64,000 nucleotides of DNA from Centroscyllium fabricii (lineage: Eukaryota). The position numbers were made by a program, and so were the translations under genes. How positions within the stretch are numbered: the first letter of the stretch is position 1; every line of letters starts with the position of its first letter. The DNA lies in the NCBI GenBank assembly GCA_051313645.2, contig JBNRSN020000008.1, positions 10,230,001 through 10,294,000 on the forward strand, given 5' to 3'. This document shows, piece by piece, positions 15,611-50,939 of this stretch. The notes beneath the pieces are model-generated. The model searched no databases. It saw only the letters and a program-made list of their open reading frames with translations, and had not been told where the DNA came from.

Positions 15611-15654
15611 TGGTGGTGAATCTCCTGTGGTGTTCCTCTCAGTAAGTCAGGTAA

Positions 15655-20310: not shown

Positions 20311-20428
20311 TTGCACGTGTTGAACCGGCCAATCGTCTGGGACTGATCCCACAGATCTCTGGCGGCAGCGACTGCAGGACCTTTGATGTATTCCTTGTCC
20401 TGTGTCATTTTTTTCTTTGGTTGAACAG

Positions 20429-20876: not shown

Positions 20877-21552
20877 CAGGTTGAACACCGTTAATCCGGC
20901 ACGGGCAGGACCAGGCCTGCGCCGGTATAGTGAAAAAGCCAGAAGAATGAAGCCGTCCAGTGCTGCGCGCACCATTCAAAATGGCCACGCGCATGCGCAG
21001 AACATTGGGAATGGCCGCCGCGAAATTTTGAATGTCTGCGCATGCGCCGCCGAACGGCGAGTGCATGCGCAGATCATTCAAAATGGCCACCGGAAGTCGG
21101 GCCCTCGATGTCGGGCATCTGCTCCTCATCCGACAGGCCGGCGAAGGCCTCCTCCTTCTCGCCTCCCAGCGACTACGAGGCGCCGGAGCTCTCGGCCTCC
21201 CGAGTCCGAGTCGCTGCTGAAGCCGCTGCTGCCTTCCATGGGGTCGGCGTCTCCTGAAGCCATCGGGACGGTGAGTGTGAATGTGCCGGGCCTGCTGGCT
21301 GATCAAAGGCTGGACTGGGCTCGGCTGCTCTCTCTCGCCCGTCCTCTCCTGTCTGTCTGCTCGCACCGAGTGCTCTGCGGAGCTGGGTTGTGCGCAGAGT
21401 TCGCACTGGCCATTTTGAATGATCTGCGCATAATTCGGTGAAGCATCAATCGCGACGGCCATTCTGCGCATGTGCAGGGCAGTCGGAGCAATTTATGGCG
21501 GATGACTGAAGTTGCCGGCTTTTCGGTTACCGGAATAACGGTCTTCAACCTG
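20877..21552. mobile_element. Tc1/mariner-pogo-like MITE, CpG-rich
   Basis: TA-caggttgaacaccgttaatccgg ... ccggaataacggtcttcaacctg-TA. Confidence 0.75.
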
Positions 21553-21566
21553 TATGTATACACACA

Positions 21567-22015
21567 CAGGTTGAGCCCCGTTAATCCGTTACCCGAAAAA
21601 TCGTCAACTTCGAATGTCCGGCAATAATTTCCCCGACTGCCCCGCGCATGCGCAAAATGGCCACCGCGATTCATGCTTCGGCGAATGATCTCTCCGAGCC
21701 AATAGCGGGCTGAGCCGGGACTCCCCGATCGCGGGCTGGGCCGGGACTCCCCGATCGCGGGCTGGGCCGGGACTCCCCGATCGCGGGCTGGGCCGGGACT
21801 CCCCGATCGCGGGCTGGGCCGGGACTCCCCGATCGCGGGCTGGGCCGGGACTCCCCGAATGATAAGCGCATGTGCAGACCACTCAAAATGGCCGCCGGCC
21901 TTTCGCGGTGGCCATTTTGAATGGTCTGCGCATGCGCTCGCCGAAGCTTCAATCGTTCAGGATTTTCACTTTCCCGGCACGGGCCTGGTCTCGCCCGTGC
22001 CCGATTAACGGTATA
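21567..22015. mobile_element. Second related MITE copy with an internal 26-bp minisatellite
   Basis: caggttgagccccgttaatcc start; (gggactccccgatcgcgggctgggcc)n at about 21715-21858. Confidence 0.65.
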
Positions 22016-24322: not shown

Positions 24323-24855
24323 TGTTAACTCACTCACTCTGTGAGGAGGACCCACCCTAGCCTGTGGGTCTGGGCTCTTACTTTAGGAGACTAAACACGT
24401 CAGTCAGTCTGTCACTTTCTCAGTAATACACAAAATCAGAGACTGTAAAATAATTAAAGTTTATTACCCAGTACCGGTACTTCACTCTCAGAGACCCCTT
24501 GTGTTTGCACACAAGCATAGCGACCCAGAAGTGCGCCCCGCTCGCTCTGAGACTGCAATTATTTATACAATGCATAAATGCAAAAAGACCTTGCAAAAAG
24601 ATTAAATGTTCATAAGCTCAACGAATAATTCTTAAAAACGAAAACAACCAATGGATAAAAAAATATATCGAGACAGTACAAACCCAATTAAATATCAACA
24701 TCTTGTGTTGACTCCTCCTTATCTTGCAGCTGCAGCTTTGTTATGAGAAAGAGAGAGAGAGAAAAGATCTCCATGTACAGACAGCCTGTCGCTTCTAAAC
24801 GTTTAACCCATGTCAAACTATAGTAAAGCAATCTAGAATTAGCCAAAGTTTATCA
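24323..24855 (-). mobile_element. Solo LTR (533 bp) inserted in a degenerate CR1
   Basis: TG..CA ends; 4-bp TSD CTGG (24319-24322 and 24856-24859); AATAAA and TATAAA on minus. Confidence 0.7.
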
Positions 24856-25169
24856 CTGGAGAATATCAGAAATCGGAGCAAGAGTAGGCCAAACGGCCCT
24901 TCGAGACTGCGCCGCCATTCAATAAGATCATGGCTGAAGCCCGATCTCCATTTTCCTCAATTCCCTTCGTGCCCAAGAATCTATCGATCTCAGCCCTGAA
25001 TATACTCAACGACTGAGCATCCACAGCCCTCTGAGGTAGAGCATTCCCAAGAAGTGAAAGGTTAAAACAATCATGAAAGACTGAACGATGTGGGGTCCTG
25101 TTCTCTAGAAGAAATAAGCACGAGGGGTGACCCAAAAGAGGTCTTTAAAATTATGAAGGGGTTTGATAG

Positions 25170-25481
25170 AATCATAGAATCCCTACAGTGCAGATAGAGG
25201 CCATTTCAGCCCATCGAGCCTGCACCGACACATATCCCACCCTATCCCCGTAACCCCACATATTCAATCCCCCTAACACTAAGGGTCAATTTATCCTGGC
25301 CAATCAACCTGACCTGCACATCTTTGGACTGTGGGAGGAAACCGGAGCACCCGGAGGAAACCCACGCAGACACGGGGAGAATGTGCAAACTCCACACAGA
25401 TAGTCACCCGAGGCTGGATTTGAACCCGGGTCTCCAGTGCGGTGAGGCAACAGTGCTAACCACTGTGCCACCGTGCCGCCG
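25170..25481 (-). mobile_element. HE1-type SINE
   Basis: V-domain and tRNA-like head on the reverse strand. Confidence 0.8.
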
Positions 25482-26754
25482 ATAGGGTAGACATACAGAA
25501 AACGTTTCCACTCGTGGGGCAATCCAAATCAATATAAGATGAAGATAGCCACTAATAAATCCAGTGGGGAATTCAGGAGAAACTTCTTTACCCAGAGGGT
25601 GGTGAGAATGTGGAACTCACTACCACAGGGAGTGGTTGAGGTGAAGAGCAGAGATACATTTAAGGGGAAGCTGGATAAACACATGAGGGAGAAAGGAATA
25701 GGTTATGTTGATCGGGTGGGAGGAGGCTTGTGTGGAGCACAAACACTAACATGGACCTGTTGGACTGAATGGCCTGTTTATGTACTGTAACTGTTATGTA
25801 ATTCTATGTAATATGATAAAGAGCTGTGAGGTGTACAAGAGTAAATGTTCAGATTACTGTACATGCTCCTGCCACAGAGAACCTGCTGGGAACATATTTT
25901 TATTTATGTTCAGGATGTGGGCAAAGGCCTCATTTATTGCCCATCCCTAGCTATCCTGCCGCCCACCACCACCTTGTTCCGATACGGCCGTCAGGGTGTT
26001 GAGGGCCCCACAACGCTGTCAGGTAGGGAATGCCCAGATTCTGACCAGGGACGGTGAAGGAACGGCGCCACGTGTCCACGTCAGGACGGTGTGCGACCCG
26101 AGAGGGGATTGTGGAGGTGCTGTCGTCCTTCTCGCTGGTAGAGGTCGCAGGGGGAGTGACGACCGCGCGCGCACGAGCCACGCTCTTGCGTCCAACGGCT
26201 GTTTTCCCAATTTATTGGCCGGCATTCCCACCACTCAAGATTCCGCGCCGGGACATGCAATGGGCAGGTTGACCCAACAAGAGTCTGCGGTATGCAGGAA
26301 TATCAGAGCTATGAGGACAGAGCAAGGGGAGTGGGACTAATCGGAGAGCTCTTTCAAAGAGCCAGCACGGGCACGATGGGCTGAAAGGCCTCCGTCTTCT
26401 GTGGTATATGATTCTATGATAAATAAATCTGGTTACAAGTGTAATTCTGGCCTCCTGCGTATCCCCGATTTCCTTTGCTCCACCATTGAGGGCCGTGCCT
26501 TCAGCTGCTCAGGCCCGAGGCTCCGGAATTCCCTCCCTAAGCCTCTCCGCCTCTCGCTCCTTCTTTAAGACACTTCTTAAATCCTACCTCTTTGACCTGT
26601 CCTAATAGCTCCAAATGTGGCTCGATGTGAATTTTTGTTTGATAACGCTCCTGTGAAGTGCCTGGGACATTTTTTACTGAGTTGTATCTGCTGGTTTGAT
26701 GTTGCCACTGCCCATTCCTCACTGATGTCCCTGTGCGATCCATTCCTCTTACAG

Positions 26755-26831
26755 ACATTTAACAAGCAGGGTGCAGGTGGGCTCTCCCATTACAATGGTG
26801 CTGATGCAGATGCCTCACATGAAACAAAAAG
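26755..26831 (+). CDS. CATIP: CATIP coding exon
   Basis: cttacag/gtacag boundaries; HLTSRVQVGSPITMVLMQMPHMKQK (recalled HLAKRIQVGSP); absent from the ORF track. Confidence 0.9.
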
Positions 26832-26914
26832 GTACAGTGACTTTTATACATCCTATGCTGCTTGAGGAAATGGGGAAACGTCTTCACACAGAGGGCTGTT
26901 CAGTTTTGGAACCA

Positions 26915-27142
26915 TAATGTGGAGGTGCCGGTGTTGGACTGGGGTGGACAAATGCAAGAAGTCACACAACACCAGATTATAGTCCAACGGTTTTATTTTA
27001 AATCACAAGCTTTCGGAGCGTTCTGCCCCTTCGTCAGGTGAACAGAGAAGGGGCACCTGACGAAGGGGCAGAACGCTCCGAAAGCTTGTGATTTAAAATA
27101 AAACCGTTGGACTATAATCTGGTGTTGTGTGACTTCTTGCAG
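26915..27142. mobile_element. Penelope-derived palindrome with two intact minimal hammerhead ribozyme cores in opposite orientation
   Basis: Inverted arms of about 90 bp around 27047; CAC-CTGACGA-AGGGGC-agaac-GCTCC-GAAA-GCTT-GTG on both strands. Confidence 0.75.
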
Positions 27143-27394
27143 TTTTGGAACGCGCTACCTGAAAGGGCGGAAGAAGCAGTTTCCAGAGGAACTTTCAAAA
27201 GGCAATTGGACATGTGCTTGATAAGAGCTCGTTTGTAAGGTTTTTGGGAAAGAGCTGGGGCTGTGGGACAAAATTGGATAGCTCTTTCAACAGGCACGAC
27301 GGACCAAATGGCCTCCTGCTGTGCTGTAAGATTCTATGATTCGAGGATCTGCTGTTTCACCTTAGTAATATTTGTTTATTTAAACAATGTACAG

Positions 27395-28360
27395 TAACTG
27401 TAGGAAGCATAGGAGTATCCTCCGGACTCAGAGGAAAACCACAAACAATGCATGCAGGGCAGAGTTAGGCCAATATCCACTATTAATTAATATCCAAAAA
27501 AGAGCCATCAAATTTTGGAAACATCTAAAATTGAGCAACCCCCACAGCTATCACTACAAAACCCTGAAATGCCAAGAAGCGAACATAAAGAGAAGTCCCC
27601 TCAGCCAACTGGTCCTGGGACTTAGTGAAGTAACTACTAACACTATTGGTAACAACCAGCCCCAGGACAGTGACATCCTAGCACACAGAATTCAACCCAA
27701 CACAATTATTACTAAACAAAGAGAAAAATATTTGACATATTGGACAGAAACGACAAAAACCCAAAACAAACTAGATTGTTATTTGGCCCTAAACAGACCG
27801 TACACCATGGCTGATTACCTGACCATGGTGAAAGATAGCAAACTGAGAAAAACCCTGACAATGTACAGACTTAGTGAGCACAGTCTAGCCATCGAAAAAG
27901 GCAGACACAGACAGACAGACGGCTGCCCAGAGAGTAAAAGCTGTGCTCCCACTGCAGTCAGGGAGTGGTGGAGACAGCTGCATTTCCTCACAACTTGTGA
28001 AAACTATCAGAGCATAAGGGGGAATTTCTACCCAAAATTCGTAAAAACATGCCCTGAATTCAAAAATTTGAACGACCACCAAAACCCCCCATATCTATTG
28101 GGGGAACAGAGGAACTGTATAAAATTAGCGGCGATCTACGTCACAGCTTGCCATAAGCAGAGGGACAACCAGTGACCATTGAAGCTAAGAAGAGTATGAG
28201 ATTTATATGTGTGTATATATGTATATGTTTGCATAGTTATCCATTCACTGTATGTCTAGTTATGCATTTGTATGTTCAATTGTATATGTTCTTTTTCTGT
28301 GCTTTGGCAACATAAGATGTATCTTGTCATGCCAATAAAGCAATTTGAATTGAATTGAAA
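27395..28360 (+). mobile_element. RTE-X-like LINE 3' fragment
   Basis: NNACRAELGQYPL, YRLSEHSLAIEKGRH motifs; tail gccaataaagcaa(ttgaa)n. Confidence 0.6.
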
Positions 28361-30900
28361 AATTGAATGTCACAGTGATAGGGAGGAGCGAGATGATGGA
28401 GCTCTAACACTGACACAGCCAACCACTGCCCTGCCTATGCTCGGAAACTCTCCCGAAATCGCTCTGCCATGTTACTTCTCTCCCTTCCTTCAAAAGCCTC
28501 CCCAAAACCTCTCTGACTATGCTTGGTCAGCTTCCTCAATGCCCACCGTTTCCCCCCCCTCACACCGTTAAATGCCTTGTGATGCTTCATTACGAAGGAA
28601 GAACTCCCATTTCCACAGCGCCTTTCACAGCCTCAGGATGTCCCAATGCGCTTTACAGCCAATGAAGTACATTTTGAAGTGTAATGTAGGAAACTCAGCA
28701 GCCAATTTACACACAGCAAGCTCCCACAAACAGCGATGTGATCAGGGCCAGATAATCTGTTTTTGATGACTTGGTTGAGGGATAAATATTGTCCAGGACA
28801 CCGGGGAGAACTCCTGTGCTCTTCTTCGAAATAGGGCCGTGGGTTCTGTTACGTCCACCCAAGAGGGCAGGTTTGGGAGGTTTTTTTTTTTATTCATTGA
28901 TGGGATGTGGGCGTCGCTGGCTGGCTAGGCCTGCATTTAGTGCCCATCCCTAATTGCCCTTGAGAAGATGGTGGTGAGCCGCCTTCTTGAACCGCTGCAG
29001 TCTTATTGTTTTTCGTAGCGGTTGTTTACAACTGAGTGGCTTGCTAGGCCATTTCAGAGGGCATTAAGAATCAAACACATTGCTGTGGGTCTGGAGTCAC
29101 ATGTAGGCCAGACCAGGCAAGGACGGCAGATTTCCTTCCCTAAAGGGCATTAGTGAACCAGATGGGTTTTTGCAACAATCGACAATGGTATCACGGTCGC
29201 CATTACTAAGACTAACATTTAATTCCAGAATTAAATTGAATTGAATTTAAATTCCACCAGCTGCCGTGGTGGGATTTGAACCCATATCCTCAGAGCATTC
29301 TGACTGAGCCTCTGGTTTACTAGTCTAGTGACATAACCACGATGCCACCGCCTCCCCCTGTACGGTGCTGTCGAAGAAGCCTTGGCAGGTTGCTGCAGTA
29401 CATCTTAGAGATGGTATGCACTGCACTCACATTGCTGCAGGGAGTGAATGGGTAAGGTGGTGGATGGGGTGCCAATCAAGTGGACTTGCCTATCGCAGAC
29501 GTGAAGGTTAGAAGCCCTCAGCCACTTGAATGAGGTGGCCCAGTCCAAACATAACACTGCTATTCCCCCAGCACCAGGGCCCACACGTGTGCATTGGTCA
29601 AGGTTTGGGTTATCATCAGAACATATAGAATGTGAACTGGCCGTTCGATCAATCAAGCTCACTCTACGTGGTGAGAAGCGAGGATCTGTGGAGGAGCAGA
29701 GCGATTTAGGGGTCCGTATACAAAAGCTAGTGAACAGGTACAAAAATAAATGCAAGTCACACAACACCAGGTTATAGTCCAACAGTTTTGTGCGCCGGTT
29801 TCCTCCCACAGTCCAAAGATGTGCGGGTTAGGTTGATTGGCCATGATAAATTGACCCTTAGTGTTAGGGGGATTAAATATGTGGGATTACGGGGATAGGG
29901 TGGGATATGTGTCGGTGCAGCCTCGATAGGGATTGAGGGATATGGGGACAGGGTACTGAGTTTGAATGATCAGCCATGATCTCATTGAATGGCGGAGCAG
30001 GCTCGAAGAGCCGAATGGCCTGCTCCTATCTTCTATGTTTCTAAAGGATGTCCTAACATAAAAGTCAGCCGGAGATCAAAGGATGCAGTCACAAAGGGTC
30101 AAATGTTACAGTCTGCTGTCTGTGAAAATAAAACTGTTGGACTATAACCTGGTGTTGTGTGACTTCTTGCATTTGTCCACCCCAGTCCAACACTGGCACC
30201 TCCACATCATAGGTACAAAAATAATTTAAGGCTAATGCAATGTTAGCCTTCCTCTGAAGCGGGCAGGAATACAGAATGATGGAAGTTATGTGACAGTTAT
30301 ATAAAGTTAGATATTAGACTGCATCTGGAGTGCTGGGCCCCGCCCCTCAGGAAGGATATATCGGCCTCGGAGGGGGAGCAGCGCAGATTCACCAGAATGA
30401 TCCCGGGGCTAAAAGGGTTAAATTAGGAGGCCAGGTTGCACAGACTGGGCTTGTGTTCCCCTCGAGTTTAGAAGATTAAGGGGTGATCTAATCGAGGGGT
30501 TTAAGATGATTATATCAATATGAAATCTGGAACTCTCTCCCCCAAAACGCTGTTGAGGCTGGGGTGGGGGGGGTTGGGGTTCAATTGAAAATTTCAAAAG
30601 TGAGATGGCTAGATTTTTGTTGGGTAAGGATATTAAGGGTTACAGAACCAAGGCGGATTCTATCATTCAACCCTGGCCCTCCGCAGACAACATTCCCCAC
30701 CCTTGCCCTGCCTCCATCTGTACTTGGCCCCTTTAATCTCCAGTGGAGCTCCGGATATGTTAACTGGCTCCTTTTGATTGGCACAGCATCCACTGCTTTT
30801 GCTGGGGTCCGTCCTTCATGGTGTCTTCAACTGGATTTACATGAGAGTTTTATATTATTATCGACTTAAGAAATGTTCTTGTGTTTCTGAACTTTCGTAG

Positions 30901-30989
30901 ATGAAGAGGAACCCAAACCAGTCTTTGAGAAGAAGCCCCTGGACTGGGAGCAGGACATGCAGCTGTACTTTAAATTTATCGACAGAACG
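30901..30989 (+). CDS. CATIP: CATIP coding exon
   Basis: ttcgtag/gtacca boundaries; [30 protein letters not shown] (recalled [24 protein letters not shown]). Confidence 0.92.
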
Positions 30990-32829
30990 GTACCAGCTAA
31001 TAACTATTCGGGCCGGGACTGGACTTGCACTGGACATAAGATGTTGAAAATGTGTTCACTTCCTTCCCCTGTCCATTCAGAAAAATAAAAACAAAAACTG
31101 CCACAGATGAGCAATGTTTCAATACATTGAGTTGCACCATGTTGGATCCCTGGTCCAGTGCATTGAGTTGCAGCATGCTGGGTCCCTGCCGCAGTGCATG
31201 AGTTGCGGCATGCTGGGTCACTGATATTCCAAGCACACTGTTCATTGTGTCAGTCTCCAGTGACTCAGTTGGGGTCCAATTGCTTCCCCTCCAAAAGGAT
31301 GGTGACCAACCCCCCTACCCTACTTGTGCACTTCCTGGTGGCCAATTGGAGAGAGCTGAGAGGGTGGTAGTTGCTATGGGGAGACCTTAAAAAGGATAAG
31401 CAAAGAGTCATAGAGTAAGACAGCACAGAAAGAGGCCCTTCGGCCCATCGCATCCGTGCCGCCCATCAATCCCAGTCTATACTACTCCCATTTTCCCACA
31501 TTTGGTCCGTAGCCTTGTATGCTGTGGCATTTCAAGTGCTCATCCAAATGCTTCTTGAATGTTGTGAATGTTCCCGCCTCTACCACCCTCTCAGGCAGCG
31601 AGTTCCAGATTCCAACCACCCTCTGGGTGAAAATGTTCTTCCTCACATCCCCACGATACCTCCTGCCACTTACCCTGAAATTATGCCCTCTTTTAAAACT
31701 TGTTACTGGGTGAGTTAGCACATCTTTCACCTCTGGGACCTGGCTTTGAATACAACAACAACAACAACAACTTGCATTTATATAGCGTCTTTAACGTAGC
31801 AAAATGACCCAAGGCGCTTCACAGAAGCGTTATCAAATTTTGACAACAAGCCACATACGGAGATATTAAGGACAGGCGAGGTAATTTTTTTTAAGGAGCG
31901 TCTTAAAACAAGGAGAGAGAGACGGAGAGGTTTAGGGCGGGAATTCCAGAGCTTCAGGCCCGGGCAGCTGAAGGCACGGCCGCCAATGGTGGAGCGATTA
32001 CAAATCATTGCTGTGCAAAAAGCCATAATTAATTGGAGGAGTGCAGAGATCTTGGAGAGTTGTAGGGCTTGTGGAGGTTACTTTCCACTTTCCAGCTCTT
32101 GATCCGTAGCCCTGGAGTTTACAACACTTCAAGTGCGTACCCAAGTACTTCTTAAATGTGATGAGGGTGTCTGCCTCTACCACCTCTCAGGCAGAGAGTT
32201 CCAGACCCCCACCACCCTCTGAGTGAACAAAGTTCTCCTCAACTCCCCTCTAAACCTCCAACCAATTACTTTAAATCTCTGCCCCCGGGTTATTGGCCTC
32301 TCTGCTAAGGGAAATAGGTCCTTCGTATCCACTCGATTTAGGCCCCTCAATTTTATACACTTTAATTAAATCCCCATGGGGATTAGCTGGGAATTAGAAA
32401 TGGGTGAATAGAGTGGCACTGTTCTCAGATTAGAACAGGGTAAGAGCGTTTCCAGTTGTGTGTGCTGTTTATTCAAACACACAATCCTATTACTGAGGGA
32501 CACCATCCCTCCGTACTGAGGGAGTACTACATTGCCAGACGCACTGCCTGTCGGATGAGATCTCTGCCCCACTCAGGTGGATGTAAAAGATCCCGTTTGG
32601 TACTATTCAAAGAAGAGCAGGGAAGTTCTCCCCAGTGTCCACATTTCCTCACCCAACATCACCAAAAATAGAACTGATCATTTATCACGTTGCTGTTTGT
32701 GGGATTTGCTGTGCGCAAATTGGCTGCCGCGTTTCCTACATTAAAACAGTGAACGCTTGAAAAGTACTTCATTGGCTGTAAAGCGCTTTGAGACGTCCTG
32801 AGGCTGTGAAAGGCGCTATAGGAAAGTTT

Positions 32830-33135
32830 ATCTACCTTCCAATTTGAGCACAGCAAGCTCCCACAAACAGCAATCTGCTAATGACCAGATCATCTGTTTT
32901 AGTGATGTTGGTTGAGGGATAAATATTGGCCCAGGACGCCAGGGAGAACCCCCCCCCCCCCCCCACCCTGCTCTTCTTCCAAATAGTGCAACGGGATGTT
33001 TAACGGCTCATCCGAAAAACGGCAACTCTGACAGTGCGGCGCTCCCTCGGTACTGCACTGGAGTGTCAGCCTGGATTGTATGCTCAAGTCTCTGGAGTGG
33101 GACTTGAACCCACGACCTCCTGACTCAGAGGCGGG
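32830..33135 (-). mobile_element. Deu-domain SINE (SacSINE1-like)
   Basis: Reverse complement of the family consensus seen elsewhere in the window. Confidence 0.65.
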
Positions 33136-33257
33136 TGTGAGGGAGTGCGGGGATGTGGGGTGGGGGTGAGGGAGGGGGGTGGTGATGCTAGCCCTACCAT
33201 GACCGAGTCCAGTGTCCTTCCCTCAGTCATCCTACCTTGTAACCCATTCCAGCAGTT

Positions 33258-34405
33258 TAGAAACATAGAAGATAGGAGCAGGAGTAGGCCATTCGGCCCC
33301 TCGAGCCTGCTCCGCCATTCAATGAGATCATGGCTGATCTTTCAAGTTCAGTACCCCGTCCCCGCCTTCTCTCCGTAACCCTTAATCCCTTTAGCCTGAA
33401 GAAATATATCCAATTCCCTCTTAAATATATTTAATGAACTGGCCTCCACTGCCCTCTGTGGCAAGGAATTCCACAGGCTCACCACTCTGGGTGAAGAAAT
33501 TCTTCCTCATATCTGTCCTAAATGGTTTACCCCTTATCCTTAGTTGGTTCCTCGACATATTGGTCCAGGTAACCGTCCCGTAAACATTCTAGGAATTCCT
33601 CCTCAGTATTTTTACTAATTTGGCTAGTCCAATCTATATGTAAATTAAAGTCACCGATGACAGCTGTGCCCTTATTGCACGCTTCTCTAATTTCCCTTTT
33701 TATGCCTTCCCCCACCTCCATATTACTGTTTGGAGGCCTATATACCACTCCCACTAAAGTTTTCCACCCCTTGCTATTTCTCAGTTCTACCCATATAGAT
33801 TCCGTATCATCCAAGTTAATATCCTTCCTTTCAATTGCGTTAATCCCTTCTTTCACCAGCAATGCTACCCCACCTCCCTTTCTTTTTTGCCGATCCTTCC
33901 TAAATATTGTATACCCCTGGATGTTAAGTTCCCAGCCTTGCCACCCCCCCTGCAGCCATGTTTCTGTAATCCCAATCAAATCATATTCGTTTACCTCTAT
34001 TTCCAGAGCTAATTCATCTACCTTGTTCCTAATGCTTCTTGCATTAAGATACAAAGCCTTCAGTCTTGCTTTTTTCACACTCTCTGAATTAGTTTGGCCC
34101 TTTGTGTTTCTCGTCTTTGCCTATTGCTTCTCACCCTTCTACCATTTATTTCTGGCTGCATATGACTTCCCTCTTTTCCACTACCTAGGTTCCCATCCCC
34201 CTGCCATGTTAGTTTAAATCCTCCCGAACAGCTCTAGCAAATATTACCCCGAGGACATCGGTACCATTCCCGCCCAGATGCAGACCGTCCATCTTGTACA
34301 GGTCCCACCTCCCGCAGAACTGGTTCCAATGCCTCAAGAATTTAAATCCCTCCCTCTTGCACCACTGCTCAAGCCACGTATTTAGCCTAACTATCCTGCT
34401 CTCTC
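33258..34405 (-). mobile_element. Internally deleted CR1 LINE (ORF1 end + APE endonuclease joined to the 3' end)
   Basis: LYLNARS, GITETW, GVVYRPP, GDFN endonuclease motifs; joined at about 33540 to the CR1 3' terminus. Confidence 0.8.
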
Positions 34406-34692
34406 TATTACTCTGTAAATAAGTATTACGTAGAATCTACGACACAGAAACAGGCCATTAGGCCCAACGGGTTCAAGAGGCGAGCGTGCTACCCACTGAA
34501 GCACGGCTAACACTTGAAAACTTTAGCAGACCCCGTACGATCGACTGAAGACAACAGAGTGGGCCCGACCGGCTCGCTGACCTTGTCTGGTTCCTGCCTT
34601 CGTCACCACACGCACACGCGCATTTTCGAAAACTTGCAGCATCACTTAACGGCGCCCGGAAGGAGTTGTTGACAGAGTCCCTTGTCTTTCAG

Positions 34693-34902
34693 GAGGAGCT
34701 GAAAGCAGACTACAGCAGCTACATGCGACACCACCCGGAACTGAGGTTCTTACTGGCCGACTTCCTGCAGTTCCTGCTCCTCCGGAAACCGCAGGACGTC
34801 CTCACCTTTGCTGCAGAGTATTTCGCCTCATTCTCCACCTTCAACACGGAGCAAACGCCCTTCCTGACCTCCAACAAGCCAAGTCCCTTCAAAGAACCTT
34901 AA
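34693..34902 (+). CDS. CATIP: CATIP last coding exon (RIIa-like dimerisation/docking region)
   Basis: ctttcag acceptor; EELKADYSSYMRHHPELRFLLADFLQFLLLRKPQDVLTFAAEYF..PSPFKEP*; ATTAAA just after the stop. Confidence 0.93.
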   Translation, partial: EELKADYSSYMRHHPELRFLLADFLQFLLLRKPQDVLTFAAEYFASFSTFNTEQTPFLTSNKPSPFKEP

Positions 34903-40019: not shown

Positions 40020-40025
40020 TTTATT
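40020..40025 (-). terminator. Putative poly(A) signal of the H2B-variant gene
   Basis: AATAAA on minus about 70 nt after the stop; no histone stem-loop seen. Confidence 0.6.
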
Positions 40026-40093
40026 GAAAAAATAAAATACTTTCTGCAGTGTTGCATCAACATGGTAGAATTCACATTGGCAGGGAGGGGAGA

Positions 40094-40282
40094 TTATTTA
40101 GCAGCAGCTTTGGCACAGCCTTTAGGGAGTACGCGACGCAGAGCGCTCCGAACTTCTTGGCTGGTGATGGTGGTGCGTCTCTTGTAGAGGGACAATCTGG
40201 CGGCCTCAGCAGCTATCTGGTCAAATAGACAGGAGGAGTTCATCTGCACAAACCCCATGGAGCTCCCATGCTCTGGATGCAC
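40094..40282 (-). CDS. Histone H2B variant, coding exon 2
   Basis: gtttacag acceptor; VHPEHGSSMGFVQMNSSCLFDQIAAEAARLSLYKRRTTITSQEVRSALRRVLPKGCAKAAAK* aligns to H2B L1-alpha2-alpha3-alphaC. Confidence 0.85.
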   Translation of the reverse strand: MHPEHGSSMGFVQMNSSCLFDQIAAEAARLSLYKRRTTITSQEVRSALRRVLPKGCAKAAAK

Positions 40283-40336
40283 CTGTAAACCAGATCATAT
40301 GGAGTCTGTTAAAGAATGTAATATGTGAACAAATCA

Positions 40337-42845
40337 CGAAGATTAGTGAAAATAATAAAGTAACAATACTAGGGGACTTTAATTTCCCCAATATCAACTG
40401 GGAGAATCAAAGTGTGAGGGGCACGGATGGTTCAGCATTCTTACAATGCAGCCAAGATAATTTTTTGAAACAATATGTGGGGTCACCTACAAGGGGGGGG
40501 GCGGTACTAGACCTAATACTTGGGAACGAGGACGGGCAGATAGAGGAGGTAACAGTGGGGGAGCACTTCGGGGATAGCGACCACAATTCAGTTAGTTTCA
40601 AAATTGTAATGGAGAAAGATAAAAATGGACCAGGGGTAAAAATACTAAACTGGGGGAAGGCGGATTTCAATAAAATTAGGAACGATGTAACCGCAGTAGA
40701 TTGGGGCCATCTCCTCAGAGGAAGATCTGCATCAGAGCAGTGGGAGGCCTTCAGAGGGGAAGTCGGGAAGATACAGGAGGAACATGTTCCTGCAAAAATT
40801 AAGGGTGGGGGAGACAAACAAAGGGAACCTTGGATGTCTAGAGATATATGTAAATTAATGAAGAAAAAAAGGGGGGCTTTTAATGAATATAAACGGCTAA
40901 AAACTGAGGAGGCACTAGGGGAGTATAAGAAATATAGGGGGGATTTAAAGAAGGAGATAAGAAAAGCCAAGAGAGGTCATGAGATTACAATGGCCGGTAA
41001 AATCAAGGATAACCCTAAGGCATTTTATAGTTATATAAAAAACAAAAGGATCACGAGGGAAAGGGTGGGGCCCATTAAAGACGATAGCGGAAAGCTGTGC
41101 GTCGAGCCTGAGGAGGTGGGGGAGGTACTAAATGAATTCTTCTCTTCAGTATTCACAAGAGAGAGGGACGATACCGACATCGAAATCGGACAGAATGTAG
41201 GGGGGGTAATTGAGGATATTACCATTACAAGGGAAGAAGTTCTAGAAATCTTGGGAGGCTTAAAGGTGGACAAATCACCAGGGCCGGACGCAATGTTCCC
41301 CAGGCTGCTGTTCGAGGCCAGGGAGGAGCTTGCGGGCCCCCTGTCCCAAATCTTCAGGACCTCTCTCACGTCAGGGGATGTGCCTGAGGACTGGAGAACG
41401 GCTAATGTAGTACCCTTGTTTAAAAAGGGTAGTAGGGACAAACCAGGCAACTACAGGCCAATCAGTCTTACATCTGTAGTGGGGAAAGTAATGGAAAAAA
41501 TTCTGAGGGAAAAAATCAGTTCGCATTTGGACAACCAAGGTCTAATAAGAGACAGTCAGCATGGCTTCGTCAAAGGTAAGTCGTGCCTGACCAATCTGTT
41601 GGAATTCTTTGAGGAAGTAACAAAGAGGGTGGATGAAGGGAGTACTGTGGACGTAGTGTATATGGACTTTAGCAAAGCTTTTGATAAAGTCCCACATAGG
41701 AGACTAATAACAAAGGTTAGAGCGCACGGGATACAGGGTAACTTGGCACAGTGGATCGAAAATTGGCTGGGGGATAGGAGACAAAGGGTAATGGTAGAGG
41801 GCTGCTTCTGTGACTGGAAACCAGTAACCAGTGGCGTCCCCCAAGGATCGGTTTTGGGACCCTTACTGTTTCTAGTATACATCAACGATTTGGATATGGG
41901 AGTAGGGGGTACGATCAGCAAATTCGCTGATGATACGAAAATCGGAAGGGTGGTAAACAACGATGAGGATAGCAAGGGGCTTCAGGAGGATATAGATATA
42001 ATGGTTAATTGGGCAGAAAAATGGCAAATGGAGTTCAACCCAGAGAAATGCGAGGTCATTCAATTCGGTAGACCAAATGGGGTAAGGGAATATACCATGA
42101 ACAACAAAACGTTAAATAGGACCGAGGAGCAGAGGGACCTGGGGGTACAGGTGCACAGCTCCCTGAAGGTTGCTGGACACGTTAACAAGGTGGTTAAGAA
42201 GGCATACGGAATTCTCGCCTTTATTAACCAGGGCATAGTATACAAAAGTAGGGAGGTAATGTTAAACCTGTATAACACACTGGTGAGACCTCAGCTGGAG
42301 TACTGTGTGCAGTTCTGGTCACCGCACTACAGGAAGGATGTGGCTGCCCTGGAGAGGGTGCAGAGAAGGTTTACCAGGATGATACCTGGTCTGGCGGACC
42401 TATGCTACGAGGAAAGGCTGGGGTTGTTTGCCTTGGAGAAAAGAAGGTGGAGGGGTGACATGATTGAGGTGTACAAGATCATGAGGGGACACGATAGGGT
42501 AGACAAAGGGGCATTGTTTCCCCTGGTGGGAGAGTCAAGCACTAGGGGACATAGATTCAAGATCAGGGGGGGGAGGTTTAGGGGGGAGGTAAGGAGAAAT
42601 TTCTTTACCCAGAGGGTGGTGGAAGACTGGAACTCCCTGCCTGTGAGGGTGGTGGAGGCAGGAACCATCACAACATTTAAAAAATACTTGGACCAGCACA
42701 TGAAGGACCATAACATACAGGGTTATGGGCCAGGTGCGGGCAACTGGGGTTAGAACAGTGAGGAGTTTTTCTGGGCCGGTGCGGACTGGATGGGCCGAAT
42801 GGCCCTTATCCGCACTGTAAAATTTCTATGATTCTATGATTCTAT
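40337..42845 (+). mobile_element. Young 5'-truncated CR1 LINE with open ORF2 (endonuclease end + RT) in the H2B-variant intron
   Basis: 779-aa ORF 40414-42753 with NYRPISL, QHGF, DFSKAFD, GVPQGSVLGP, FADD; tail (attctatg)n. Confidence 0.95.
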
Positions 42846-42937
42846 GTGTGTAGAACAAAAAGGACAGACAGGATGAGTTGGGAGTCAATGTGCTTGCTTT
42901 ACTAGGCCAGAGCAAACTGAGCATGCTCATACAAAAC

Positions 42938-43143
42938 TTGATGTGGAGGTGCCGGTGTTGGACTGGGGTGGACAAATGCAAGAAGTCACAACACCAGGTT
43001 ATAGTCCAACAGCTTGATTTTAAATCACAAGCTTTCGGAGCGCTGCTCCTTCCTCAGGTGACGAAGGAGCAGCGCTCCAAAAGCTTGTGATTTAAAATAA
43101 AACTGTTGGACTATAATCTGGTGTTGTGTGACTTCTTGCATTC
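42938..43143. mobile_element. Penelope-derived palindromic remnant
   Basis: Same family; hairpin centred at about 43058. Confidence 0.7.
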
Positions 43144-44097
43144 ATACTAAACTGATATTACACTCCGATGAAGGGTCCTAGACCTGAAATGTTAACTCTT
43201 GCCATGGATGCTGCCTGGCCTGCCGAGTGCCAACATTTTCTGTTATTTTATGATATTACACTGTTTACTCTTCCCTTGCCGCCCCCCCCCCCCACCCCAC
43301 CCCCCCACCCCAACCATACATATTCCCCCTCAAATTACAACAAAACTTTGCAATTCCAGCATTATTTGTACCACAAAAGCCACTTCCCCCCCCCCTCCTT
43401 TTAAATGAACTACTACAAACCCAGTTTAATAACAGGTTTGCAGAGCCTTGAAGGTTTTGGTGTTGAACCATTTTTCAGGCTGTTTTGGTTCCAAACAAGG
43501 CAATACTGTTGCCATCTCAGACTTGTTTGAGCCTGGTACTTCAGTTTCTGAAGTCTGAATGAGTCACTCATGTGTTCATAATTAAGTGGTTGAAGATCAT
43601 GTCTTGGTTCATGTCTAGCAGAGATCATTTGATCTGCACAAACACGTTGGATGCGTCACCAATTTCAACCAAATTGTTCCACCAACCTCTACTATGGTTC
43701 TTGCATCCCATCCTAGTCATCAAAATGCAGTGTATGTGGGTAGAACAAATGAAGGACAGACATGTGCTTGCTTTACTAGGCTAGAGCAAATGGAGCATGC
43801 TCATTAAACCATTAGAAAGAGGGAGTCAGATAGCAAGTGGCCAGGGTAACAGGTGGAGATCCTCCAGTGGGTTAGGTCCACACTGGTGAAATGCAATGGC
43901 TTTCTTGGTCCACCAGTTCCAAAACTGGGCTCTGCACAAGTTGATTTAATTTGCTGTCATTTTAATTCTCTGCTCCTACACCAGTTCTAATGAAGTTCAA
44001 TAAGCAGCAGCTCATCTTGGATCAGGCGCTTTACAGCCTTCCAGAAGCAGAGTTCAACAATTTCAGATCAGAACCACAGATCAGAACCACATGGTCA

Positions 44098-44510
44098 GCA
44101 GTGGCTCAGTGGGCAGCACTCACCCAAGTCAGCAGGTTGTGGGCTCAAATCCCACTCGAGACTTGCGCACAAAAAAAAAAAAAATCCAGGCCGACACCCC
44201 AAGTGAAGTACTGAAGGAGTGTTGCACAGAGGTGCGGTCCTTTGGTTGAGACATTAAACAGAGGCCACACCTGCTCAGATATGCCTCTATTCAGAGCAGG
44301 GGGTGTTCTCCTTGGTGTCCTGGGCCAATATTTATCCCTCAACCAACATCACTAAAACAAATTCTAGTCATCTTGTTTGTGGGAGCTTGCTGTGTGCAAA
44401 TTGGCTGCTGCTTTGTTTCCTACATTACAACAGTGACTACACTTCAAAAAAAGTACTTTCATTGGCTGTAAGGAGATGTCTGTTGGTCATGAAAGGTGCT
44501 GTAGAAAGGA
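44098..44510 (+). mobile_element. Deu-domain SINE (degenerate)
   Basis: gtggctcagtgggcagcactc head and family tail. Confidence 0.6.
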
Positions 44511-45130
44511 GTCTCACTACTCCATGTAATACTGTCCACTAAACTTGACAACCAAATGTACTAACAAGCTTGGAGGGCAAGAAACTGCTTGGCTAAAACA
44601 TTTGTAAAATAAAAGTGATTTGCTTTTTTTTTTAGGGAAAAACAGACAAGACCAAATTCTGAGAACCACGAGTCAAAAACCTACAGATGTGAAAACAACC
44701 CCAACCCTTGAATGTCTGACCTTGGTTAATCTCTGACCCCCGAATGTCTGACCTTGGTTAATGAAGCATCAAAAACAGTTAGAAAGCGAGAGAGAGGAAA
44801 ACATTAATCACAGTTTGGGACACAAATGCTTTGGGCAAGTTGCCAAGTTTTGGAGTACAAGGGATGTTGTAGACAACACTTGTGGCTGCAGTAGTTGGCA
44901 ACCTGATCAGTTGCCAGTCATACATCTGGTCATTGCTGACTTGACCTCACTGGTTAGTACATATGTGGTGGCTTATGATCACTTGAGCTTAAAGTAAATG
45001 ATTTGAGATTAGTGTGTGTTTGCAATAAGTAAATGAAGTGAGTACAATTTGTATTACTTGTAATCTCTTGCTGATTTTAAGTAAAGAATGGTTTATCCTG
45101 AAATTTGTCTGGAGTTGTCTGTTCCACAAA

Positions 45131-45367
45131 TGTGGTAATCATGTATAACCACTGTACATAGTCGCCGGTCTACCTGTACAATATTGTAGGCCAGGTCAGC
45201 CACACCCCTAACTCCTCCCCTCAGGTCAGAGTATATAGGCGAGTGCTGACCTGCCCCCGCTCATTCTTCACCTTGACCTCACCAGGAGACCAGCTCCATT
45301 CTTAGTTAATAAAAGCCTGTAGTTTAGTTAACTACTCGTCTTTGAGAGATTAATTGACGATACGTCA
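45131..45367 (+). mobile_element. Gypsy-family solo LTR
   Basis: tgtggtaatc...attgacgatacgtca, similar to 8588-8867. Confidence 0.75.
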
Positions 45368-46136
45368 ACAGGTCTGAATTCTAAACTGTCAGACAATCAG
45401 AATGTCAGTTTTTGGTAGACAGCGGGTGCTGGTAATTATTCTGCTGTTGCCATTTACAGCTCCTCTAGATCCATCTTGGTTTCTTCACTTGTCCCATCAC
45501 TGCCCCCCTTTCACCACCGTCCCTAGTCAATTCAATTCAAATAGCTTTATTGGCATGAATGGTATCAACCTTTGTTGCCAAAGCATTGTAACATACATAA
45601 AAATTACATTAGTAGAGCATTGTAACATACATATAAATAATACATTAGTAGACTTAATAACAGTACTAACGGTCATTGAATCTCCTTGCCTGCCACCCTT
45701 TCCCCAGTTCTGATTAAAAAGGTAAATCAACCCAGTTCTGATCAAAAGGTAAATCAACCCAACAGATGCTGCCTGCCCTGCTGAGTATTTCCAGCATTTT
45801 CTATTTTTATTTAATCTGATCTAATTATTGGGCATTTAAAATTCATTCATGGTATGTGGGCATCACAGGCATTTTTCCTATTTGCCCAAAGAAGGTGGTG
45901 GTGAGCCGCCTTCCTGAACCGCTGCAGTCCGTGTGGGGAAGGTGCTCCCACAGTGCTGTTAGGGAGGGAGTTCCAGGATTTCGACCCAGTTCCAGGACTT
46001 CGACCCAGCGATATTTCAAAACCTTGTCCTTCCAGGCGGTCAAGGTTGCAGGTGGTGGAACTCAAGTACAAGGAGTACGGAGGCAAAAATAGCATGGGTG
46101 CATTCAAGGGAAAGCTAGATAAATACACAAACCAAA

Positions 46137-47895
46137 GGCCCAGAAATTCAGGTCCCAACACGCAAGTACACGCTGGGTACTCATAGGCCCAAAAAGTGCT
46201 GGTTTAGAGAGAGCACGGGAAACCAGAACTTCTGTTCCCCTGAAAGAAGGGGAAAAACAGAGGTGGAACGTGTGCGCAGGAGAGACAGCGCGTGCGCATG
46301 GAAGGTTTTTTCCATGTGGGCAAGTCTCTTGGAGATACACATGTAAAAAGCAGGCAGGTGGAAGGCCTGCTTTTAACAAGGCAAGTGGTGAATTAATTAA
46401 AAAATCCCCCCCCCCCCCCTCAGGTTTATTATTTTTAAATACTTTAAAGAAAGGCAAGTTTATTTTTGCCCCATTAGAAAATGTAATTTTTCCAAAAATT
46501 AAAATTGTTTAAAATAGTAATTTCATGTAATTTATGATGTGGAGGTGCCGGTGTTGGACTGGGGTAGACAAATGCAAGAAGTCACAACACCAGGTTATAG
46601 TCCAACAGTTTTATTTTAAATCACAAGCTTTCGGAGTGCTGCTCCTTCCTCAGGTGAAGTGTCGAGATTTATTTAAACATACATACATATATACACATTT
46701 ATTGAGAGAGAACAATGTGGTCTCTCCAACTGTTCACATCACACCTCAGCTGAGGGACATCAAAGGTGTTCCAACATATCAGTCAGCCTGAGATCAAAGG
46801 GTGCAGTCACAAAGGGTCAAATGTCAGTCTGCTGTCTGTGAAAATCCCAGATTTAAAAAAAAAAAAAAAAGGATTTTCCTTACTGAAAATCGCAGAACAA
46901 GCCAAAGACGATTCAAGTCTGGATGACTAAGTCAGGCAGGGTCACATGTAGCGCGACATAAATCCAATATCAGTGGAGGCCGTGCTCATGGGTGCGGAAC
47001 TTGGCTATCAGCCTCTGCTCGACGATTTTGCATTGTCGTGTGTCTCGAAGGCCACCTTAGAGAATGCTTACCCGAAGATCGGAGGCTGAATGTCCTTGAC
47101 TGCTGAAGTGTTCCGACTGGGAGGGAACACTCCTGCCTGGTGATTGTTGCACAGTGTCCGTTCATCCGTTGTCGTAGTGTCTGCATGGTCTCGCCGATGT
47201 ACCATGCCCCGGGGCATCCTTTCCTGGTCATCCAGAGTTGAATCATCTTTGGCTTGTTCTGTGATTTTCAGTAAGGAAAATCTTTTTTTTTTTTTTTTTT
47301 TTTATATAAAGTCATTCTGTGGGATTTTCACAGACAACAGACTAACATTTGACCCTTTGTGACTGCACCCTTTGATCTCAGGCTGACTGATATGTTGGAA
47401 CACCTTTGATGTCCCTCAGCTGAGGTGTGATGTGAAACAGTTGGAGACCACATTGTTCTCTCTATATAGATATTGTTCTCTCGCTCTCTATATGCTATGT
47501 TTAAATGAATCTCGTCACTTCGCCTGAGGAAGGAGCAGCGCTCCAAAAGCTTGACTCCAAATAAAACTGTTGGACTATAACTGTAATTTAATTTTTAAAA
47601 TGTGATTTTTAAAAATTTGAAGTTTTAGTTATGTTTTGGGGCTTATAATAATTATAGTTTTGACAGCTCTTCCTGTCAATTTTATGAATGGGCAATTATC
47701 TGCCTGCTACCATTGACTCCAGGGCCCACTTCGAACCAACTTCACCGCTGGGATACACAAGCACTGCACGCCAGCGGTTAGAGGCCCAGGATCAGAATCC
47801 CACGCGGGCCCCACAGCACAATGGCTGGCGCACTAGGTAAGTGTGGGTCGGAGGCTTGCACCGGCGGGAAGCCCCCGACCTGAATTTCTGGGCCA
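46137..47895. mobile_element. MITE (Harbinger-like) carrying a nested Penelope fragment
   Basis: TIRs ggcccagaaattcaggtc / gacctgaatttctgggcc. Confidence 0.65.
46534..47583 (-). mobile_element. Penelope-like element fragment with inverted pLTRs and a GIY-YIG endonuclease remnant
   Basis: Inverted arms of about 350 bp (46585-46930 and 47226-47583) flanking GCPGAWYIGETMQTLRQRMNGH. Confidence 0.8.
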
Positions 47896-48579
47896 TTATT
47901 CCCACAGCAAAGAGGGAGGAATACAAGTCAACATGACAAAGATGCAAGTTCAAGCAAGTTGGGGCCAAGGTAACAAACTAAAAAAGGACTATCGTAAACA
48001 TTTAAACTGTTAAAAACTAGAGGCCAAACTGACAAGTTAGTGGCTAGATGTAGTATTTGTTGCCATGTTATACAACACAAACAGGCCATTTGGCCCAAGC
48101 TGGCATTTATGCTCTACATCACCAAATCTGTCAATTCCTTGCTCAGGTTTATCTAACTTCTCCTTAAATGCATCTGTGCTATTCGCTTCAACCACTCCGT
48201 GGTAGGAAGTCTCAAAAATCATGGCAATTGGCAGAAGATCCAAAGGAGACGCAAGGAAACACTTTAGGGGTAAGCCATTTAGGACAGACGAGAATTTCTT
48301 CACCCAGTGTGGTGAACCGGTGGAATTCTACCACAGAAGGCCGTGGAGGCCAATTCATTAAATATATTCAAGAAGGAGTTGGATATATTTCTTAAGGCTA
48401 AAGGGATCAAGGGATATGGGGAGAAGGCACGGACAGGGTGTGGTAAACCACCATATTGTATAGTGTCTCCCTCTCATGTCCCCTCCTTGTAATTACTGTG
48501 TCTGTATGTATAGTTGTGACTCCTTGTCTTGTCTGGGAGGACTCAGCTTCCTCTCCAGGCTCCGCCTACAACTTGGGTA

Positions 48580-49153
48580 CAGGTTGTGCACCATTAATCC
48601 GCCACGGGCGGGACCAGGCCAGTGCCGGGAAACAGAAAAAAAACAGGAGAACGAGGTTGGACACTGGCCACGCGCACCTGCACCAGCACCCTTCAAAATG
48701 GCCACGCGCACCATTCAAAATGGCCACGCGCACCATTCAAAATGGCCACGCGCATGCGCACAACATTGGGATTGGCTGGCACGCACATGCGCAGATCGGG
48801 CCCGGGTCCGCCTTCCCTCCATCGCCTTTCGGGTTGCTGCTACCGCCGAGCCGGACTCAAGCTGACAGCTGTTGCCTAGTGACTGTCCACCTCAGTCACG
48901 GGGCTCAGCTGTCGAGAAAATAACCGGCGGCCGTATTGAATTATCTGCGCATGCGCTAACCGTCCGGCGACGCATGCGCAGATCATTCAAAACACCAGGC
49001 AGCTGTTTTGAATGATCTGCGCATGCGCAGATCATTCGCTGAAGCCACGATGGCGGTGGCCATCTTGCGCATGCGCAGTGCAGTCGGGGCAATTTGTGCC
49101 AGCAGACTGAAGCTGCCGGCTATTCGAGACACGGATTTTCAGTGCACAACCTG
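48580..49153. mobile_element. Tc1/mariner-pogo-like MITE inserted in a Gypsy-type LTR fragment (starting about 48439)
   Basis: TA-caggttgtgcac ... gtgcacaacctg-TA; same family as 20877-21552. Confidence 0.75.
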
Positions 49154-49877
49154 TATAAATGTGCTTGCACAAACATTGGTATTAACATGGGGGCTGTGGG
49201 AGGAGGAGCGGGGGTTCCTAGCTGCAATGTATGGAGTGCAAGATATACAATTCTGTTTAGAGCAGCTTTCTACCAACAAGAACTATTCGAGGTACAACAC
49301 AAATTAAGAGCACCATCAAGTCAAACCCACAAATCTCATTCTTCACCCCCCTCCCCTTAAATCCTACAGAGACAAAGAAAACTTCCCATAAGAAATGTGT
49401 AGGGGTGAGCTATACAGCCCTAGCACATCAAACCAATTGCACTCACCAATTCTCTTTAATCAGATGGAGGGGTTAGTTTACAAGGGGAGCCAGATTCCCC
49501 AGTGAAAGACAATTCATGGGCCAGTTGAATTGACAATTCTCAAGACTGTTCAACTACTCTGCACAATTGGAGATTGCAAAAACTTCACGGTTTAGGAACC
49601 AGGGGGGATGTCCCTCAGAATGGAGAAAGGCAAAACTATAAAAATAATTCTGTTTATTGTTGAATAAAGCACTACACCATTTTTGTAGAAGGAGGTTAAC
49701 CTTTTTCAAAACTCCATCTCCAACTCTTGTAGGATAGAAGGAGCATTCAATTGTTGGACCAGAAGAGGGTTAACTTTACATCTAGACCTTACCCACTAGT
49801 AGGTGCTACTATCCCACCCCAATTGAGTGAGTGAACAATCCCTGTGTCAAAGCACAACCCCAGACAGAGTCCTGTAC

Positions 49878-50003
49878 CTGTTTCAGCATCCTATAGATGT
49901 AGGTGGAGTATCGGGCCTTGTGCTTGAAGCTGGTCTTCTTCTTCTCTGCTTTGCTCAGCTTGGCATACTGCTGGTGCTTGACAATAGGAGCGACCGACTT
50001 CAT
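49878..50003 (-). CDS. Histone H2B variant, coding exon 1
   Basis: MKSVAPIVKHQQYAKLSKAEKKKTSFKHKARYSTYIYRMLKQ then gtacag donor; YSTYIYRMLKQ corresponds to H2B YSVYVYKVLKQ; phase 0 joins exon 2. Confidence 0.85.
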
Positions 50004-50939
50004 TATCAAAACTTTGCACGCAACTGCTATACTCCAACAAAAAAAAAATATCTTCCAACCCACTTCACCAGTGATTCTTTCTAATCCCCAGAGGGTCTGC
50101 TTTTAATACTCTCCAATCACCTGGAACCGATCAGCTCAATTAGGACAATTTGTGTTTAAGATCACAAAATACTTGAGACTTTTTAATTGCCACTGTTAAA
50201 GTAAACAAGGTCAAATTGACTTTCATTGAGATTGTCCCCTCTGTCTGATAAGGGGCTGGAGTGCATTGTCACCCCGGCCGGGGTGATATTAGTTTATGTT
50301 TTGATTATGTTAATCAAGTGTTTCTGAGTTTTCTTTGCAGGCCGCTTGTCCAGGAGAGTGGGAGGATCCGCTCGGCGATGCGGAGGGCCCGGCGGATGGA
50401 GTGGATCGACAACCGGAGACTGCCGGATCTGCACCAGCCGTTCGCTGAGAGCGCCGACCCTCGTCTGTGTGTTTTCCCGGAGACCCGCTGTCCGGATGGG
50501 CGGGTGACGAAGGCCAGAAAGCTTGGCAAATTTGGACCCCTGCCTGCGGCCATGAGGACTTGTGGTCGTGACCCCTGCCTTGTGGGCATGAGGGCTTGTG
50601 ACATTTACCCCTGCTTGTGGGCATATGGACTTGTGACTTTGACCCCTGCCTCGAAGGCAGGAGGGCTTGAAACTTTGACCCCTACCTTGTGGACATTGGG
50701 GCTTGGGAGTTTGCCGCGGCTCAAGCGCGGTAATGTGGGGTTTTATTTTGTTTTGTAAATATTGTAAATAATGGTGTTTTTCTATTTGGTTTTAAATAAA
50801 AGAGTTCTGTCTGATAAGATGCGGGTCGCCGATCGATTAGCAGGGAGTTCTCTGAAGATCCTGGTCCATGTCTGTTTTGGTGCATCAACTAAAAAACTGT
50901 AACTTAACCAAAAATACAACAACTGAGATTCAACAAATT

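Follow-up and report, generated by a model that had tools for sequence, protein, structure and literature searches.

Replication-coupled H2B genes are intronless, clustered and furnished with a 3' stem-loop. What kind of gene, then, is the H2B-like one that stands alone, split by a large intron, in the 7.2-Gb genome of the shark Centroscyllium fabricii (contig JBNRSN020000008.1, here C1377, 10.23-10.29 Mb)? The 64,000-nucleotide stretch that was analyzed at this locus is referred to below as the window. An initial annotation had taken the gene for a variant of a cartilaginous-fish lineage, much more divergent than the intron-bearing variant H2B.K. We find that the gene is intact, carries an intron and encodes a variant with an H2B fold in a cartilaginous fish, and that it belongs to a conserved and generically annotated H2B variant lineage spread across jawed vertebrates, which is probably tied to mammalian H2B.N. 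Going further, we see an about even chance that this intact gene without alphaC, with its jawed-vertebrate relatives, is of the H2B.N lineage, likely as a genome-duplication sister, and encodes a polyadenylated, nucleosome-loosening oocyte histone.

The gene consists of two minus-strand coding exons (Table 1), which join at a KQ|VH junction through a phase-0 GT-AG intron into a 104-residue open reading frame with an H2B fold. The structure proposed initially was re-derived in full, and a profile of the 36-row family described below, from which the window protein was excluded, selects exactly these two exons (E 2.9e-19 for exon 2 and 2.4e-11 for exon 1). Its target comprised 9,742 stop-to-stop frames from the 264 kb around the window and 15 pattern loci; apart from the two exons no frame fell under E 0.17, and as regards H2B the claim that no other histone gene lies nearby holds throughout the 264 kb. 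Exon 2 matches Pfam Histone (E 1.4e-5) and H2B chains in the PDB (E ~1e-9), and exon 1 alone also has H2B as its best PDB matches, albeit weak ones. RefSeq models of three other shark species read through the same KQ|VH junction. The intron had been described as filled with transposable elements (TEs), which its sequence bears out: 59% of it is covered by 16-mers repeated among the compared loci, read depth is very high in most bins, and it contains a frame of a long interspersed nuclear element (LINE). The predicted AATAAA was located, and the histone 3' stem-loop pattern is unmatched across the whole window, while the same pattern matched three of the seven canonical-type H2B loci tried. The four sequencing runs over the locus are of genomic DNA; their contigs continue through both exon ends, and the joints displayed from them include no splice joint, which is not informative on expression.

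Table 1. Features of the histone gene and its surroundings, in window coordinates
Feature	Position	Strand	Details
Coding exon 1	49878..50003	-	ATG to alpha1 end; 42 codons, ends KQ
Intron	40283..49877	-	phase 0, GT-AG; 9,595 bp, TE-rich; donor GTACAG
Coding exon 2	40094..40282	-	L1, shortened alpha2, L2, alpha3, without alphaC; 62 codons + TAA, starts VH
AATAAA, candidate poly(A) signal	40020..40025	-	69 nt 3' of stop
TATA-like TATTAA, candidate promoter element	50103..50108	-	105 nt 5' of ATG; consensus match only
LINE endonuclease/reverse-transcriptase frame	40168..42753	+	stop to stop; intron 3' end, antisense to histone gene
CATIP	10330..34902	+	exons near 10330, 13233, 19302, 20435 and 26.8 kb, last at 34.6-34.9 kb

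The encoded protein has alpha1, the alpha2 end, L2 and alpha3 in common with replication-coupled H2B, whereas the latter has a full alpha2 and an alphaC and is encoded by intronless, clustered genes on other contigs that carry the stem-loop. In the window protein 19 residues follow the TSxE motif, as opposed to 32 in canonical H2B, so that alphaC is missing. This loss, like the resemblance to H2B.N, had been overlooked initially. That the gene is a pseudogene decaying in C. fabricii is very unlikely, even though there are hints of relaxed constraint: both coding differences between the alleles are non-synonymous (R31, R92) and none is synonymous, an Asn before L2 that is kept in 34/36 family rows has been lost, and the reference donor lacks a G at +5 (the second allele has G at both +4 and +5). 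Against decay, nothing has disrupted the open frame, the two splice sites or the AATAAA in this gene with its TE-filled intron; the end branch is also short (0.13-0.15), and open frames persist in sharks and rays. The L2 loop (window 40160-40185, minus strand) reads YKRRTTIT where the family has YNKRRTIT; the length is equal and the Asn gone, possibly through a compensated three-base slip.

The relatives emerged stepwise. A query with exon 2 returned a single protein, the Heptranchias RefSeq model 'histone H2B-like', and this protein in turn led to models from Scyliorhinus and Chiloscyllium as well as to a sturgeon protein. A profile of the three shark proteins and exon 2 gave 44 matches, namely 10 canonical-type proteins and 34 vertebrate relatives: three sharks, three rays, three sturgeon rows, gar, newt, turtle and 22 frog rows from 18 species. 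A cartilaginous-fish lineage is therefore too narrow a description. Nor has annotation missed the gene, as had been expected, since RefSeq models exist in at least six other elasmobranchs, under generic names only. All relatives are labeled 'H2B-like' or uncharacterized; the RefSeq entries, including XP_067842847, XP_038646340/1 and XP_043550537, bear the automatic names 'histone H2B-like' or 'H2B.3-like', and we regard these and the frog, sturgeon, gar, newt and turtle models as orthologues or relatives of the window gene. Among the latter are the frog models XENTR_v10024747 and XELAEV_18044525mg and the sturgeon model XP_033866747. The profile search retrieved no teleost, bird, squamate, coelacanth, chimaera or mammalian row, which is not evidence of absence, as mammalian H2B.N was not retrieved either. 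A search of 50% clusters gave canonical-type H2Bs with one exception (P0003), and the ESM Atlas gave generic histone clusters only. We found no paper that treats the relatives as a variant class in the literature searched, which covered few subscription journals. Scyliorhinus canicula has two near-identical models on one contig (P0002 and P0121) with differing C-termini, which could be tandem copies or isoforms.

The 36 family rows consist of these relatives minus a 67-residue sturgeon fragment (P0304, excluded from trees and counts), plus the window protein and two cluster members. The His at the alpha2 end is replaced by Leu in all 36, and the family shares S-L-Y in place of the canonical A-H-Y. 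A six-residue motif occurs in 33/36 family rows and 0/14 other H2B rows, and a looser form of it in 0/269 other proteins compared, counts that are partly circular because the search words were taken from motif-bearing proteins. The proteins start with MK or MR in 30 of the 36 rows. Elasmobranch rows are all 89-104 residues long and without alphaC, which is kept in five rows (three sturgeon, newt and turtle). Within the histone fold, the window protein is identical to four orthologues at 40-51 of 60-63 residues. Of the phylogeny that had been suggested as a check, with canonical H2B and H2B.K, one part came out clearly, as the window protein groups with seven other elasmobranch rows (support 99/96; 92/76 in a fold-only tree). 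The other part did not, since the branch separating the family from canonical H2B and H2B.K is weak (82/9 and 84/58, or 91/87 without the turtle; of the 36 rows, 18 and 17 entered the second pair of trees).

The same genome contains a second intron-bearing H2B, which is H2B.K-like (C1155:311,290,438-311,293,850). It has an AG before VHP and a first exon ending in KQ|GT 3,050 bp upstream, and thus a 3,050-bp intron at the same KQ|VH junction as the window gene, in line with the initial annotation, which gave the intron position as that of H2B.K (H2BK1). The two genes are also alike in having an AATAAA about 70 nt after the stop (71 nt in the H2B.K-like gene). They differ in that the H2B.K-like protein is near-canonical and keeps alphaC: it is identical to the canonical H2B of its own genome at 78/89 residues, whereas the window protein, which lacks such a near-canonical fold, is identical at 28/63 to canonical H2B and at 31/63 to the H2B.K-like protein. 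The claim of a divergence well beyond that of H2B.K is thereby upheld. By eye, the H2B.K-like core closely resembles that of coelacanth H2B.K as aligned by Raman et al. (PMC8857922; the other papers drawn upon are PMC9526256, PMC11742582, PMC6917767, PMC10972751 and PMC7269912). Those authors placed the origin of H2B.K in bony vertebrates, by their own account possibly an underestimate (PMC8857922); here a cartilaginous fish carries an intron-bearing, near-canonical H2B.K-like gene.

That the window gene itself is the ordinary H2B.K orthologue, which had been named as a refuting outcome, is barely credible. It has the intron in the same position, and an approximately unbiased (AU) test did not reject a single clade of six elasmobranch rows and the H2B.K of C. 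fabricii (p 0.33). The AU test could thus not decide, and we conclude that the window gene is not H2B.K because the genome has two separate genes, of which the near-canonical one with the same intron lies on C1155; this largely refutes the orthologue. Nor does the window gene lie at an ABCF2/7q36-like locus as a one-to-one orthologue should. The synteny of the H2B.K-like gene is partly shown: two ASIC genes lie 0.3-0.6 Mb and a CHPF-type gene 5.5 Mb away, an exon near it is presumably SMARCD3-like, and Pfam scans around it gave no named host gene.

Mammalian H2B.N (H2BN1) resembles the window gene in several respects. It likewise has two exons, an intron in the histone fold, a candidate poly(A) signal, less than 50% fold identity to canonical H2B (28/63 in the window protein), no alphaC, and S-F/L-Y at the alpha2 end (PMC8857922, Seal et al.). 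H2B.K and H2B.N are stated to share their intron position, with no residue named (PMC8857922, Seal et al.), and the window gene has its intron where the H2B.K-like gene of its own genome does. Read by eye, Data S1 of Raman et al. has S-F/L at the canonical A-H positions in 11/12 H2B.N rows, as against 0/54 of the other variant rows shown (PMC8857922). The shark protein and opossum H2B.N have S-L/F-Y and L-F-x-Q in common, again by eye, but the alpha2 motif W-V-L-D is missing from the former. Between the turtle protein and the opossum row, nine non-canonical residues are common by eye, among them W-V-x-D and S-L-D, both in alpha2. This Mauremys mutica 'histone H2B-like' protein (P0279, in a 13-member cluster) is by eye clearly H2B.N-like and has kept a degenerate alphaC. 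The window protein differs from H2B.N in its short tail with an MK start, a three-residue deletion in L1/alpha2, and the lack of the W-V/I-L-D motif of alpha2, which the turtle protein largely has.

H2B.N lacks alphaC (PMC8857922, Seal et al.), and so does the window protein; however, the shared loss is likely convergent, because 5/36 relatives have kept the helix. H2B.N has been described as a mammal-only variant of ~177 million years (Ma), and a common origin with H2B.K has been left open (Raman et al., PMC8857922; Seal et al.). A non-mammalian H2B.N was not found in the literature searched. H2B.N adjoins MYO1D, on its 5' side, whereas in the shark the gene is flanked by CATIP and an SLC4 gene, and the MYO1D side is empty. 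Since the defining synteny is thus absent, we do not file the gene as H2B.N. One may ask whether it is instead an independent lineage from an H2B.K-like ancestor, with S-L/F-Y and alphaC loss as convergent likenesses. This is decidedly doubtful. In its favor, the loss of alphaC is convergent on any reading, the residues that directly connect shark and mammal are few, tree support is weak, and the N-termini are unlike, with MK in the family but a long start, M-Y-F-I-C, in H2B.N. Against it, the motif is found in 0/269 other proteins and 0/54 other mammalian variant rows, and its family form is present in the H2B.N-like protein of the turtle.

The neighborhood bears on how the genes are related. 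CATIP, identified by Pfam CATIP_N and a PDB CATIP match (its last two exons being placed with short motifs), stands tail to tail with the histone gene at a distance of ~5 kb, and an AE2/AE3-type SLC4 gene, for which AE2 and AE3 score alike, ends ~60 kb 5' of the histone gene. The contig also has an Nramp gene and, 2.45 Mb away, a CDK5 activator that is the least like human CDK5R1 of those compared (296 bits vs 356 and 329). We take CATIP, SLC4, Nramp and the CDK5 activator to be genes of human 2q35, on the HoxD chromosome, and the H2B.K and window genes to lie in paralogous chromosome blocks. Judged by its length, the X. tropicalis contig with the frog relative may be chromosome 9, which bears HoxD. 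A further contig, C778, carries CDK5R1, ASIC genes and a class I myosin gene beside CDK5R1, whose first exon (at 15.94 Mb) was found with a short motif. The third CDK5-activator gene, at C1155:237.09-237.20 Mb, also has a class I myosin gene as its neighbor, an arrangement like that of CDK5R1 and its myosin on C778. All three intron-bearing H2B genes sit among paralogous neighbors (CDK5 activators, class I myosins, ASIC, SLC4 and CHPF), which favors copies of one ancestral gene. On this view, the genome duplications of early vertebrates would have spread one intron-bearing H2B gene to three blocks, which today contain H2B.K (7q36-like), H2B.N (17q11-like) and the window gene (2q35-like).

A possible but tentative alternative is that the family is truly orthologous to H2B.N, the gene having moved with its intron from the CATIP side to MYO1D in the amniote stem, which would leave its functional interpretation unchanged. 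Human H2BN1 overlaps the MYO1D divergent transcript at 17q11.2 (Seal et al. for the overlap), and in the shark no H2B-like frame occurs within 247 kb on the 5' side of the first exon of the MYO1D-like gene (C778). The window gene is single copy in its genome. A genome-wide search with a first motif pattern gave seven matches, of which only the window locus is an H2B, and one with a family-wide motif gave eight, none an H2B, as against 13 control matches; neither pattern found a second family copy, and own-genome protein searches scored the best 150 candidates, so that very diverged copies may escape. The turtle protein bridges the family and H2B.N, and its gene is on a 17.2-Mb contig, which we take to be too small for the CATIP chromosome. 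Such a move would, on the other hand, require that the gene arrived by coincidence in a block paralogous to the one it had left, with CDK5 activator, class I myosin and ASIC neighbors. A Pfam search to place TMEM98 gave no match, and scans of the 100 kb before CATIP gave no named host gene.

We next consider what the protein might do. The parts of H2B that it keeps, alpha1, the alpha2 end, L2 and alpha3, are those that contact H4 and DNA, while those it has lost pack against H2A; acidic-patch residues of H2B and also K120 reside in alphaC. Mean pairwise identity within the family is uneven, at 0.68 for alpha1 and 0.60 from the alpha2 end to alpha3, but 0.21 for L1 together with the first half of alpha2 and 0.15 for alphaC. 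In an AlphaFold model, the Heptranchias orthologue forms only three helices (31-40, 58-74 and 82-96) and none at 41-57, whereas the sturgeon control has an extra helix at 48-56, both models being of low confidence (predicted local distance difference test scores of 68 and 67). A predicted complex of the Heptranchias protein with an H2A from the C. fabricii genome scored 0.29 against a mark of 0.34, without use of an alignment and without a verdict either way. H79 of H2B bonds to N38 of H2A across two H2A-H2B dimers (PMC6917767), and by our own reading of the numbering the His replaced at the alpha2 end is H79. The window protein would accordingly have kept its H4- and DNA-facing parts and lost the H2B share of the acidic patch and K120 with alphaC, and with the first half of alpha2 decayed and the cross-dimer His changed to Leu, dimers are expected to be weakly held. 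Such a histone would loosen nucleosomes, escape ubiquitylation at K120 and offer no binding site to acidic-patch readers. H2B.N and H2B.K are expressed in mammalian oocytes and H2B.K also in chicken ovary (PMC8857922), and by analogy the shark protein may be produced outside S phase, from a spliced poly(A) mRNA, and act in the chromatin of oocytes or early embryos.

With the same ancestry, the protein could also be non-nucleosomal, in the manner of subacrosomal H2B.L, or serve the male germ line, CATIP being a ciliary or sperm gene. The loss of alphaC and of half of alpha2, i.e., the H2A-packing parts, would fit a non-nucleosomal role, which Raman et al. raised for H2B.N (PMC8857922). Yet, across the family, conservation within exon 2 is highest in the segment that faces H4 and DNA, and both described intron-bearing H2Bs are oocyte-biased. 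We consider this alternative unlikely; as to ancestry it overlaps with the others.

A number of observations weigh against our preferred account of a duplication-derived oocyte histone of the H2B.N lineage, beyond the hints of relaxed constraint, the partial circularity of the motif counts, the weak family branch, the unrejected grouping with H2B.K and the low-confidence models already described. The trees were built without mammalian H2B.N rows, and the link to H2B.N was drawn by eye. The stretch reaching from 230 kb before the H2B.K-like gene to 200 kb after it showed neither an SLC4 exon nor an ABCF2 motif. The pairing of Hox chromosomes as A/B vs C/D (PMC10972751) would make H2B.K and H2B.N sisters, rather than H2B.N and the window gene, although prolonged exchange among these chromosomes is allowed (PMC7269912). 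Sister copies moreover need several losses of the MYO1D-side copy, which a single move would replace, with fewer events overall. Finally, the oocyte role is proposed by analogy with mammalian H2B.N and with H2B.K of mammals and chicken.

Taking both sides together, we give the following account roughly equal prospects of being right and wrong: the H2B.N type would not be a mammalian invention but an unnamed lineage dating from the first jawed vertebrates; H2B.K, H2B.N and the window gene would be genome-duplication copies of a single oocyte H2B with an intron; and alphaC would, if the family is one clade, have been shed about four times, separately in elasmobranchs, gar, frogs and mammals. If the relatives hold, the age of an alphaC-less, intron-bearing H2B is more than doubled relative to the ~177 Ma of mammal-only H2B.N, and a synteny-based answer is on offer for the common-origin question of H2B.K and H2B.N. 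Natural comparisons are also on hand, each setting a lineage that has alphaC beside one that lacks it (sturgeon/gar, newt/frog and turtle/mammal). Rodents have lost H2B.N, which makes its function hard to study (PMC8857922, Seal et al.). A relative exists in Xenopus, whose oocytes and egg extracts permit direct tests; if our account is true, Xenopus becomes a laboratory model for a variant lost by mice.

Other elements were noted in and near the window. Between the histone gene and the SLC4 gene lies a provirus-like element, with a retroviral env-like frame (TLV_coat) at 60752-62143 on the minus strand and gag/pol-like frames that lie shortly past the window's edge. On the plus strand, frames at 4357-8275, upstream of where the first CATIP_N exon stands, encode protease/reverse transcriptase/RNase H and integrase of the long terminal repeat (LTR)-retrotransposon type. 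Positions 1-4041 are taken up by a 67-bp tandem array of 60.5 copies, and the same 67-bp unit recurs in a four-copy array at 8867-9147.

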